The notes: generated from the letters alone by a model not told the origin. A stretch of DNA of 64,000 nucleotides from an uncultured Elusimicrobia bacterium (GCA_963702895.1 OY969767.1:480001-544000); one strand, 5' to 3'. Positions 24,558 through 26,778 are shown, counted from the stretch's first letter. Made by a program: numbers and translations.

Positions 24558-24686
24558 ATGGGCGGACGGTCCGTGACGGTCATGAGTCTTCTAACCCAAA
24601 AGCTCACGTAACGCCCAAGTCTCATCGGAGCACTTTTCACCGTTTCGGTACCCCTTCCGTCGTCACCCCGATTTCTATGACCTCGG

Positions 24687-25711
24687 TCAAGCATTTTTTA
24701 GGATCCGAGGATTGACTGACCTATAGTCAGCAAGATACGGTGACTTTGTGCGCAGTACGGCACAGATAATGCGCAAGAGTTTGTTGGCAATGTTGTTGAG
24801 CGCCAAGCGTTTGGCTTTTCCGGCTTGTACTTTTCTTTCAAAGTAGTGCCTGAACTGCTGATGATGTGTGCGAAGGGATCGGGCTGCCAGGTGCAATAGC
24901 TTGCGGATGATGTCCGGACCGATCCCGCGAGAGCTTGCATTCTTGCGCACGGAAGTTCCGCTGGAGTGTTCGAGTGGGCACATGCCCAAATACGAGGCGA
25001 TGCGGCGGGGTTCCAGGGATCGCGTAAAGCCTTGGCTGATGACCATCAAATGGGCCGTCAAGAGTCGGCCCACCCCAGGGATGGTGAGCAGCAAGCTCAC
25101 CATGGGGCCAATGGTGGGGTGGTTTGAGATCAGTTGATCCAAGGCCTGATCGATTTTTTTGATCTGTTCTTTGAGATGGCGGATGGTGTCCAGGAAGCTT
25201 TGTTCGGCGAGGATCGTGCGAACGACTTTCCGGCTGATGGCCGACAAGGCATTTTGATTGGCGGTCATCTGGCCGGTCAGCTGCTCGCGCGTCGTCAGAA
25301 GAACACGGACTTGTTCGATCAAGGCTTCCGAGGGTTTCCAGAACGCGAGTTGATCGAAAAAGCGCCAGGCATATTCGGCGAGCTGGCGGCTATCGATGGG
25401 GTCGCTTTTGGCTCCCAGGGGGTGAAAGGCGCGTTTGGTTTTATGCGGCGCCTCCACCGACACCGGATAGCCTTTGGCACAGAGCCAGTAGCAGAGCTGC
25501 TCCGCATAAACACCGGTGGCTTCCATGCAGACCACGGTATTGGTGGAATCGACTCCGCGTTTCTTAAACCAGGCTTCGAATTCCTCAAAGCCGGCGGGTG
25601 TATTGGCGAGCGTCTGATGTTTGGAATACTTTTGTTCGGCTGAGCTGTAATGTGTTGCGCTGAAGGTTTGATCGGCGATATCAACGCCTATGTAATGGAG
25701 AGGTGGGTTCA
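24687..25711 (-). CDS. IS110 family DEDD recombinase/transposase
   Basis: YIGVDIA, CMEATG, KSDPIDS, TIPGVG, YLGMCP..HSSG; AGGAG RBS before MNPPLH (start position approximate). Confidence 0.95.
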
Positions 25712-25734
25712 TAAGGCTCCTTTTTGTAAGTGCC

Positions 25735-25905
25735 GACATTCGTGATGCGAGCTTTGCCTATTAAGGGTTTTTATGACATCACTTCTATCTAGCTTTGGAT
25801 CACGAAAGAATGGGGTCTTTACCGGGGTATGGTTTTCACCTTGGCGAAAGTTAGACTTATTCCATTCTTGTCGGTGTCTTCTTCTAGAGTCTACAAAGAC
25901 TCGAG
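25735..25905 (-). ncRNA. Candidate IS110 bridge RNA
   Basis: 5' hairpin GAGTCT-TTGT-AGACTC; target loop with CTTTCGCC / GGT-GAAA-ACC / ACCCCGG; donor loop with GTCATAAAAACC / TAATAGG closed by GTGATG/CATCAC. Confidence 0.8.
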
Positions 25906-26189
25906 AAAAGTCTAATAGGCGAAAGCCGGCCCTCCAGACTCCCGGCGGGCCGAGTCGCCGGACTTGTGGAGACCCGGGGTCCAGTCCATCGGATGTTCTG
26001 GATACCGGCCCGCCAGACTACCGTCGGGCCGCCCGCCAGGGTAGTGTGGAGGGCGGCGTTCGCCGGTATGACGGCATTGGCTTACGTGAGGATTTGGGTT
26101 CTTTACGCTTCCGTTGGGCAATTCCCGTAAGCGCCCGAGCCTCGCCATGATCGGCTCACACGCCATCGGCCTGGTCAAAACGATCTTAT

Positions 26190-26660
26190 GATCTGATACG
26201 GCAGATCCTGGGTACCGTACGGCGGAACCTTGGTACCATACAGCAGATCTTCAGTACCGTACGGCAGATCTTTGGTACATACGGCGGATCTTCAGTACCG
26301 TACGGCGGATCTTCAGTACCGTACGGCGGGTCCTTGGTACCATACGGCGGATCTCCGGTACCGTACAGCAGATCTTTGGTACCGTACGGCGGATACTAGA
26401 TATCGTACGGCAGATCTTCGATTCCCATGCAGCGGATCTGCCCCATGGTACTGAAGATCTGCCCCATGGTACTGAAGATCTGCCTCATGGAGCTTGAAGA
26501 TCCGCCTCATGGTACTGAAGCTCCGCCTCATGGAACCGAAGATCTGCCGTACGAAGCTGATGATCCGCCGCATGGTTCCTCGAATCCGCCTCACGGTTCC
26601 TCGGATCCGCCTCACGGAGCCTAAGATCCGCCGCACGGAGCCTAAGATCCGCCCCATGGT
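26190..26660. repeat. Two head-to-head arrays of a 21-bp unit (GTACCGTACGGCGGATCTTCA and its reverse complement)
   Basis: About ten units each way; collapsed version at 22530-22600. Confidence 0.85.
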
Positions 26661-26778
26661 TCATAGAATCCGCCTCTTTCCCAAGGCCCAAGGCCTTTCT
26701 GCCCATCCTGTCCTGGGTTTTTATTTAACTCATTTTTAACACTGCCACCATTTGCCCGTAACCTGCCTCCACTATGCT

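Follow-up and report, generated by a model that had tools for sequence, protein, structure and literature searches.

The 64,000-nucleotide stretch of DNA analysed here, referred to below as the window, comes from an uncultured Elusimicrobia bacterium (GCA_963702895.1 OY969767.1:480001-544000) and carries an IS110-family insertion sequence (IS) at 24670-25917 on the minus strand. The element spans TATTAGAC... to ...GTCATAGAAA plus the right core TC, and is 1,248 bp long, including one C that can be assigned to either side. Its recombinase gene (24687-25712, minus strand) encodes a protein of 341 amino acids, with the ATG at 25712 after AAGGAG and the stop codon TGA within the -35 box described below. 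The 205 nucleotides (nt) from the left end to the ATG and the ~17 nt after the stop codon correspond to the end layout of the IS110 group. An earlier note, made from the sequence alone, had proposed that the long non-coding end is a readable bridge RNA programmed against a palindromic repeat of the host. IS621 of Escherichia coli uses a 177-nt bridge RNA (Durrant et al. 2024, PMC11208160; Hiraizumi et al. 2024, PMC11208158; both drawn on here in part). We put the probability at about nine in ten that 24670-25917 is an intact IS110-group IS whose 205-nt left non-coding end encodes a bridge RNA, acting by a mechanism that we infer from that of IS621.

The recombinase combines a RuvC-like DEDD domain with a Tnp domain bearing the catalytic serine, as is characteristic of the IS110 group. 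The Pfam domains DEDD_Tnp_IS110 (PF01548) and Transposase_20 (PF02371) were both detected, and the protein scored 193.5 bits, against a cut-off of 140, with NF033542 ('IS110 family RNA-guided transposase'). It aligned over the full length with the IS621 transposase (8wt6_A, E 3.5e-28) and with ISCro4 (E 1.7e-26); the catalytic motifs were in register in both alignments, for IS621 comprising D, E, DxxD and SGxS. Residues D11, E64, D104, D107 and S251 were invariant across an alignment of 38 homologues. The C-terminal half (residues 136-297) additionally resembled NF052498, 'TIGR-Tas system RNA-guided endonuclease', though weakly (29.1 bits vs a cut-off of 100).

Five copies of the element are present in the 2.72-Mb single-contig genome, 100% identical and with identical limits. 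All five are flanked as ...CCGGCTTTCGCC ' TATTAGAC...GTCATAGAAAT ' CGGGGTGACG (where ' marks a junction), and every copy sits at the same position of the same repeat. The sequence around each insertion, GGCTTTCG-CC-GGGGTGAC, belongs to the hairpin CCCCGGC-TTTC-GCCGGGG; the insertion site spans its loop and 3' arm, every copy lying after CTTTCG-CC and before GGGGT. In the window, the left half of the target (GGCTTTCG and the core CC, comprising the loop and the first part of the 3' arm) occupies 25918-25927, and the right half (GGGGTGAC), placed by junction comparison, occupies 24662-24669, both on the minus strand. Across the genome, 36 uninterrupted instances of the 18-mer GGCTTTCGCCGGGGTGAC were counted. 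The 13-nt target to which the guides correspond is present in 37 exact free copies, the counts being 58 at one mismatch and 165 at two; there are 70 stems of the CCGGC-TTTC-GCCGG type, and several longer repeat families end in the target hairpin. A short GC-rich hairpin with 37 free and 5 occupied exact targets is REP-like (repetitive extragenic palindrome). Thus the target reconstructed in the earlier note, and its assignment to a host REP palindrome, were borne out by five identical junctions together with the free 18-mers and 13-mers. A genome search for excision footprints revealed no copy of the target with TC, none with three C and one copy of a single-C target.

Comparison with relatives was used to evaluate the RNA. 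Among 4,794 candidates, 1,704 were recombinase homologues at E ≤ 1e-20. The nearest homologous proteins (87%, 85% and 65% identical) are all metagenomic; the recombinase was found at the same threshold in 0 of 60 related genomes, and species-representative genomes yielded one relative, at 30% identity. Metagenome contigs were scanned with a profile, by which 484 of 597 candidate stretches were confirmed as relatives, and the best 80 (L037-L116, 39-59% identity) were used. Their common ends are [C/T]ATTAGACT on the left, where ATTAGACT is nearly invariant, and TTGAC-N(2-3)-GTCATAG-NNN-TC on the right, with the core TC at both junctions in most of them. The ends of the present element align with the conserved [C/T]ATTAGACT and GTCATAG-NNN-TC. 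The RNA alignment comprised the window and 64 of the 80 loci (65 elements). It excluded five duplicates (L041, L053, L071, L092 and L100), seven loci with too little upstream sequence or without the anchor motif (L037, L094, L098, L102, L108, L111 and L113), L051 (L052's element again, with a misplaced anchor), L116 (a long insertion), and L112 and L115, in which the 5' part of the gene is absent. For RNAalifold the window was left out and L074, L096 and L101 were dropped as long or divergent, leaving 61 relatives.

The putative bridge RNA, about 160 nt in length with both ends predicted, lies at 25741-25902 (minus strand) and consists of a 5' stem-loop, a target-binding loop and a donor-binding loop. 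The 5' stem-loop GAGUCU-UUGU-AGACUC (25887-25902) is present in the minimum-energy folds of the window sequence. The target-binding module (25806-25869) has an outer stem (25869-25862/25813-25806), the stem GUCU 25856-25853/AGAC 25818-25815 and a hairpin at 25840-25831, and the donor-binding module (25741-25804) has the stems CGUGAU 25804-25799/AUCACG 25746-25741 and AGCU 25794-25791/AGCU 25753-25750, all on the minus strand. The sequence strings on which the earlier note had built its proposal were all found in place: AGAATGG at 25868-25862 and CCATTCT at 25813-25807, GTCT and AGAC of the second target-loop stem, CTTTCGCC at 25850-25843, GGT-GAAA-ACC at 25840-25831 and ACCCCGG at 25828-25822, and, on the donor side, GTGATG at 25782-25777, CATCAC at 25747-25742, GTCATAAAAACC at 25777-25766 and TAATAGG at 25763-25757. 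The fold of 25735-25905 (minus strand), the interval which that note had assigned to the RNA, gave z = -3.34, and 0 of 200 shuffles folded as well.

Five helices were named from the window sequence and then counted on the 65-element alignment. The outer stem of the target loop was paired in 98.6% of alignment cells, with changes on both sides in 8 of 9 pairs, and GUCU/AGAC in 100%, with both-side changes in 1 of 4 pairs. The corresponding figures were 80.7% and 3/3 for the inner hairpin of the target loop, 78.4% and 6/6 for the donor-loop outer stem CGUGAU/AUCACG, and 97.7% and 2/4 for the second donor-loop stem AGCU/AGCU. For the scaffold as a whole, 92.0% of cells were paired as compared to 80.0% in shuffled controls and at most 51.4% when the partners were slid, and 20 of 26 pairs were double-changed. 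RNAalifold, run on the 61 relatives, independently predicted the target-loop stems, AGCU/AGCU and a 3-bp inner hairpin in the donor loop. A covariance model (R1) built from that alignment matched 25738-25872 (minus strand) over its full length with 82.9 bits (E 1.2e-13), its sole match in the 64 kb, and in the whole genome it matched exactly the five copies. The covarying scaffold, the R1 match and guides that fit the flanks, described below, uphold the assignment to a bridge RNA of an IS110-group element. As judged from its sequence, the predicted RNA has the IS621-type scaffold, that is, a 5' stem-loop and, after it, a pair of covarying stem-loops with internal loops.

In IS621, the left guide has the top-strand sense of the left arm and core, and the right guide is the reverse complement of the core and right arm (PMC11208160). 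The putative left target guide of the present element, (A)CUUUCG + CC (25843-25851, minus strand), has the sense of the left target and core, and its CTTTCGCC is found at the left junction of all five copies. The right target guide, ACCCC + GG with U 25821 as the handshake base after it (25821-25828, minus strand), is the reverse complement of CC-GGGGT. The left guide fits at 8/8 positions and the right guide at 7/7, of which the right target arm contributes 5/5. When the 205-nt non-coding end was shuffled 200,000 times with dinucleotides preserved, the 8-mer was found in 511 and the 7-mer in 1,448 shuffles, and the two together, in order and 10-40 nt apart, in none.

The target guides change with the flanks among the relatives. 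The left target guide matched its flank at a mean of 5.08 of 7 positions as compared to 3.71 when flanks were shuffled among the unique guide/flank pairs (52 pairs), and the right guide at 4.65 of 5 as compared to 2.55 (55 pairs); none of 5,000 permutations was as high in either case, a significance that is overstated because the tests ignore the shared descent of the elements. The count of distinct target classes is the fairer figure. There are 24 distinct right-target 5-mers, with an exactly complementary guide in 15 and a guide off by one to three bases in the other 9; examples of target and guide are GCAAT-AUUGC, AGGAT-AUCCU, AAGCT-AGCUU, GGCGA-UCGCC and TGCGG-CCGCA. A 5/5 match was observed in 42 of the 55 guide/target pairs vs 0.8% of non-cognate pairs. 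Thus the target-binding loop and both target guides had been placed correctly in the earlier note, with stems that covary and guides that follow the insertion sites across the 24 right-target classes.

Two natural variants of the target guides were observed. In a 221-nt metagenome contig of run X2, 90-95% alike, five adjacent bases (25847-25851) are substituted, which together make up the 5' half of the left target guide, and a single further difference is given over 195 nt; from its sequence it looks like a reprogrammed left target guide. Four relatives of 56-59% protein identity (L038, L039, L042 and L043) share with the present element the ends TATTAGAC... / ...GTCATAGAAA-TC and the scaffold, and differ from it in having other target guides and an intact GCC/GGC hairpin in the donor loop. 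The guides of L043 are set to GTCACC-CC-GGCGA, the same kind of hairpin read from the opposite strand. L043 (522-785 and the right flank) is inserted at GTCACC-CC-GGCGAAAGCCGGGG, a site fitted by its guides GUCACCCC and UCGCCGA, which is the reverse complement of the target hairpin of the present genome with the crossover shifted by a few bases. By this comparison of sequences, L043 has apparently been retargeted in nature to the opposite strand of a repeat of the same kind.

In the donor-binding loop, the left guide identified by homology is AUAGAAGU (25781-25788, minus strand), which would pair with the right end ATAGAAAT, its last U reading the T of the core. The agreement with ATAGAAAT is 7/8 by strict matching and 8/8 with one G-T wobble. 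It begins two bases after its stem, the same spacing as that of the left target guide from GUCU. Relatives carry, two positions beyond the AGCU-type stem, eight bases that mirror right ends of the forms ATAGCATT, ATAACATT, ATAGTGTT, ATAATATT and ATAGTAAT, and the mean match between this guide and the right end was 7.38 of 8 as compared to 6.17 in shuffled pairs (47 unique pairs; 0/5,000 permutations as high, with significance again overstated by shared descent). The right donor guide, UAAUA + GG with C 25756 as the handshake base after it (25756-25763, minus strand), is the reverse complement of G-CC-TATTA at the left junction. It matches the left end at 5/5 positions and both core bases, with G-T at the T of the donor; the earlier note had recognised TAATAGG as the exact reverse complement of CCTATTA (25919-25913), and this was confirmed. 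Opposite donor A7, the left donor guide has a G (window position 25782) in eight elements, namely the present one, its four near relatives and three with ATAGTAAT ends. It represents a recurring G-T wobble at the handshake position and no plain match.

In IS621, the bases just 3' of both right guides pair, once the strands have been exchanged, with position 7 of the non-cognate DNA, and pairing with that of their own has to be avoided (PMC11208158). In the present element U25821 is able to pair with donor A7 and C25756 with target G7, and U25821 may also wobble with its own target G7. Across the aligned elements, the handshake base of the target loop pairs with donor position 7 in 61 of 63 cases (A:T 43, U:A 18) and with its own target in 7 of 55, while that of the donor loop pairs with target position 7 in 46 of 55 and with its own donor in 2 of 63. 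The usual G opposite C of the relatives is swapped to C opposite G in the present element. These putative handshake bases follow the rule of IS621, with the non-cognate position 7 paired and the cognate one not.

A promoter for the RNA would be formed on circularisation. The -35 box TTGACC (24685-24690) lies in the right end and the -10 box TAGACT (25909-25914) in the left end, both on the minus strand, and where the two ends meet in the circle they would form TTGACC-18-TAGACT, which agrees with the consensus at 9/12 positions by consensus scan only. Both ends are available for 58 relatives; 56 of these have a promoter-like site across the junction, of the form TTGACA-17-TAGACT in 44. The integrated copy (24560-26060) had no sigma-70-like site meeting the scan criteria. 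Transcription from the junction promoter would start at about 25902, close to the edge at 25905 given in the earlier note. The element would leave as a circle, in which the joined ends build a sigma-70-type promoter from which the RNA could be transcribed. In the target loop, ACCCC-GG would pair with the top strand of core and right target; in the donor loop, AUAGAAGU would pair with the right end ATAGAAA-T on its bottom strand, and UAAUA-GG with the top strand of core and left end TATTA. The DEDD/serine recombinase would then cut the top strands after the core and exchange them, whereupon U25821 could pair with donor A7 and C25756 with target G7, completing the handshake.

The arrangement of the donor loop was weighed against a second layout, that of the earlier note, in which GUGAUG/CAUCAC closes a compact loop, the donor loop has been remodelled and the left donor guide is GUCAUAAAAACC (25766-25777, minus strand), which occupies the columns of the relatives' inner hairpin. 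Several observations weigh against the family layout adopted here and, in part, against the bridge RNA itself, and those on the donor loop come from this comparison. AUAGAAGU has no match to the second core base C, the next base being G. The 12-mer GTCATAAAAACC agrees with the right end GTCATAGAAATC (24681-24670) at 10 of 12 positions and so exceeds AUAGAAGU in raw identity over the same 12 positions (7/12); this agreement is carried by all five copies and is unique to the present element, the 62 relatives matching their own right ends at 4 to 8 of 12. The donor loop is unlike that of the family in that its inner hairpin is degenerate (G:C, U:A and a C-A mismatch, with one non-standard pair in the R1 alignment; the pair counts of the 61 relatives in RNAalifold are UA 32 and CG 21), and the remark in the earlier note that no inner hairpin is obvious is therefore fair. 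With stems enforced, the GUGAUG/CAUCAC layout folded at -49.5 and the family stems at -46.2 kcal/mol, and the minimum-energy fold uses GUGAUG/CAUCAC. Folding energy is not decisive between the two: in the unconstrained fold (-52.4 kcal/mol) the guide segments pair with each other, and the named stems alone give -17.2 for GUGAUG/CAUCAC and -20.2 kcal/mol for the family stems. What tells against the remodelled loop is the comparison with relatives. GUGAUG/CAUCAC is paired in only 38.7% of cells across the 65 elements, as compared to 78.4% and 97.7% for the family stems; the 12-mer sits where the 61 relatives have a covarying 3-bp hairpin, and it is AUAGAAGU, spaced like the left target guide, that covaries with the right end family-wide. 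In addition, the 12-mer would leave two mismatches on the bottom strand (A-C and C-A, neither a wobble and one at the core), and a hairpin loop without an inner stem departs from the internal-loop geometry reported for IS621 (PMC11208160). The remodelled layout is thus unlikely, and both the closing stem and the left donor guide of the earlier note are replaced here by those of the family.

The remaining observations of this kind concern the RNA and its activity. The nearest relatives compared as DNA reach only 56-59% protein identity (best 80 of 484). None of the sequencing runs listed for the stretch is recorded as RNA; transcript, transcript ends and protein binding are therefore all predictions. 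Contigs of runs X1, X2, X3 and X20 contained no circle junction, no empty-site joint and no piece spanning the stretch. These gaps, together with the loss of one of the three pairs of the donor-loop inner hairpin, would suit a recently frozen relic, which inherited its RNA scaffold and whose weakened donor loop no longer supports transposition. Such a relic is improbable: five copies 100% identical over 1.25 kb at five sites argue for recent spread with this very sequence, the reading frame and catalytic residues are intact, and all four guides and both handshake bases still fit. The missing RNA record would equally suit a mere 5' untranslated leader or promoter region whose matches to the flanks are target leftovers or chance, as would the search of Rfam 15, which gave nothing on the non-coding end at E up to 10. 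Here the covarying stems, the occurrence of both target guides in 0 of 200,000 shuffles, the covariation of guides with differing targets across 24 target classes and the handshake pattern all speak for the bridge RNA, and a leader without guides is barely credible.

The core was positioned by homology, two bases before [C/T]ATTAGAC and two bases after GTCATAG-NNN. A core shifted by one base (CT/CG) was ruled out by its placement in the relatives, before [C/T]ATTAGAC and directly after GTCATAG-NNN. Free targets carry CC in 37 of 37 cases and TC in none. In the five copies the left junction is always CC and the right junction always TC, so that the second core base, C, is common to donor and target. 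The 'CC-like core' of the earlier note therefore holds for the target; the element's own right end has TC, the usual core of the family. CC on the left and TC on the right were also found in L038, L039, L042, L043 and L060, giving one polarity at 10 of 10 sites and the reverse at none; the search pattern for right ends required TC, so a right end with CC would be missed, and the four loci without a called right end are cut, frameshifted or differently spaced. With respect to the first core base, the left target, right target and right donor guides read C and the left donor guide reads T, and a G may wobble with T. In L043 and L060 the right target guide reads the T of the donor, by which the first core base would behave like an extra handshake position.

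In IS621 the top strands are cut after the core (PMC11208158); if they are exchanged there, the left junction would keep CC and the right junction would carry TC. Were the element to excise by the same top-strand rule, the target would regain CC and the circle TC. If both strands were instead exchanged with a stagger about the core, mismatches would result and then, after replication, both polarities. It is possible, although we would place it somewhat below even odds, that donor TC and target CC are permanently different with the guides split between them, that products are of the top-strand kind only, favouring single-strand transfer over two-strand transfer with a 2-nt stagger, and that the inner hairpin of the donor loop has turned into the 10/12 copy of the right end, maybe a second donor guide. 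No description of a fixed difference between donor and target core was found in the literature searched, although one may nevertheless exist. The one-sided outcome at the core bears on the question of one- versus two-strand transfer.

Other IS110-family elements and repeats occur in the same genome. There are 13 recombinase genes of the family in three lineages, the present one with 5, type B with 5 (G000:C1: 416661-417641, 646160-647140, 671508-672488, 2232389-2233369 and 2427493-2428473) and type C with 3 (G000:C1: 130477-131376, 180035-180934 and 1125744-1126643). Model R1 matches the present lineage only, neither type B nor type C. The upstream non-coding end of type C is 203 nt long, and its copies are flanked by palindromic repeats of a different kind; that of type B is short, which suggests that its RNA lies in the right end. 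To the left of the present element, 25918-25990 (70 nt) is itself repetitive, the genome containing over 25 copies of it, whole or partial. It gave a weak match to the Rfam family sX12 (27.7 bits vs a gathering score of 106, E 0.024) and resembles a terminator, with a hairpin and a U-run. Further out, open frames on both strands at 26230-26740 give short repeated peptides (e.g. ADLQYRT... and RRILGSV...), which points to a tandem DNA repeat beyond the left flank of the element.

Bridge RNAs are a hot genome-editing tool. They were predicted in 85.7% of catalogued IS110-group elements by Durrant et al. (PMC11208160), and since they are already general in the group, one more orthologue is useful and hardly surprising. 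The mechanism is already known, and the element had mostly been read correctly in the earlier note, with one guide segment misplaced. What the locus adds is a compact pair (a 341-amino-acid recombinase and a predicted RNA of ~160 nt) for a target of 13 nt, a readable family in which at least 60 relatives are naturally reprogrammed to 24 right targets, family-wide support for the handshake rule outside the original sequence set, and the fixed core difference between donor and target.

As compared to IS621, in the parts of its description drawn on here, the present element has a similar DEDD and serine recombinase that aligns over its full length, although the two proteins are distant (102 bits by phmmer). 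The prediction for the present element is also, as in IS621, of an RNA located in a long left end and built of a 5' stem-loop and two further stem-loops that contain internal loops, with guides of the same senses, handshake bases after the right guides and a promoter rebuilt at the circle junction, and the target is again a repeated palindrome. In contrast, the core is TC (target CC), differing between donor and target at its first base, where that of IS621 is CT; the right target guide extends 5 bases beyond the core vs 2 in IS621; and the left donor guide stops at the first core base, next to a degenerate inner hairpin in the donor loop. ISPpu10 and ISPpu9 of Pseudomonas putida are, like the present element, multi-copy IS110 elements with all copies in one conserved intergenic repeat that is GC-rich and palindromic, according to the portions available of their reports (bioRxiv 10.64898/2026.03.19.712850; PMC12288879). 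For ISPpu10, a stem-loop 5' of the target is reported there as an extra specificity gate (bioRxiv 10.64898/2026.03.19.712850), whereas the crossover of the present element lies inside the 3' arm of the hairpin. Preprints on CazIS110-1 and IS621, consulted in part, propose copy-out and predominantly top-strand insertion (bioRxiv 10.1101/2025.10.25.684509; 10.64898/2026.08.31.748434). Their single-strand models predict the polarity observed here, namely that every copy has the core of the target at its left junction and that of the donor at its right. Those preprints report bench results obtained with identical cores, whereas the present element offers a natural footprint in sequence, and this presumed footprint of polarity agrees with top-strand transfer as they describe it, while being no proof of it.

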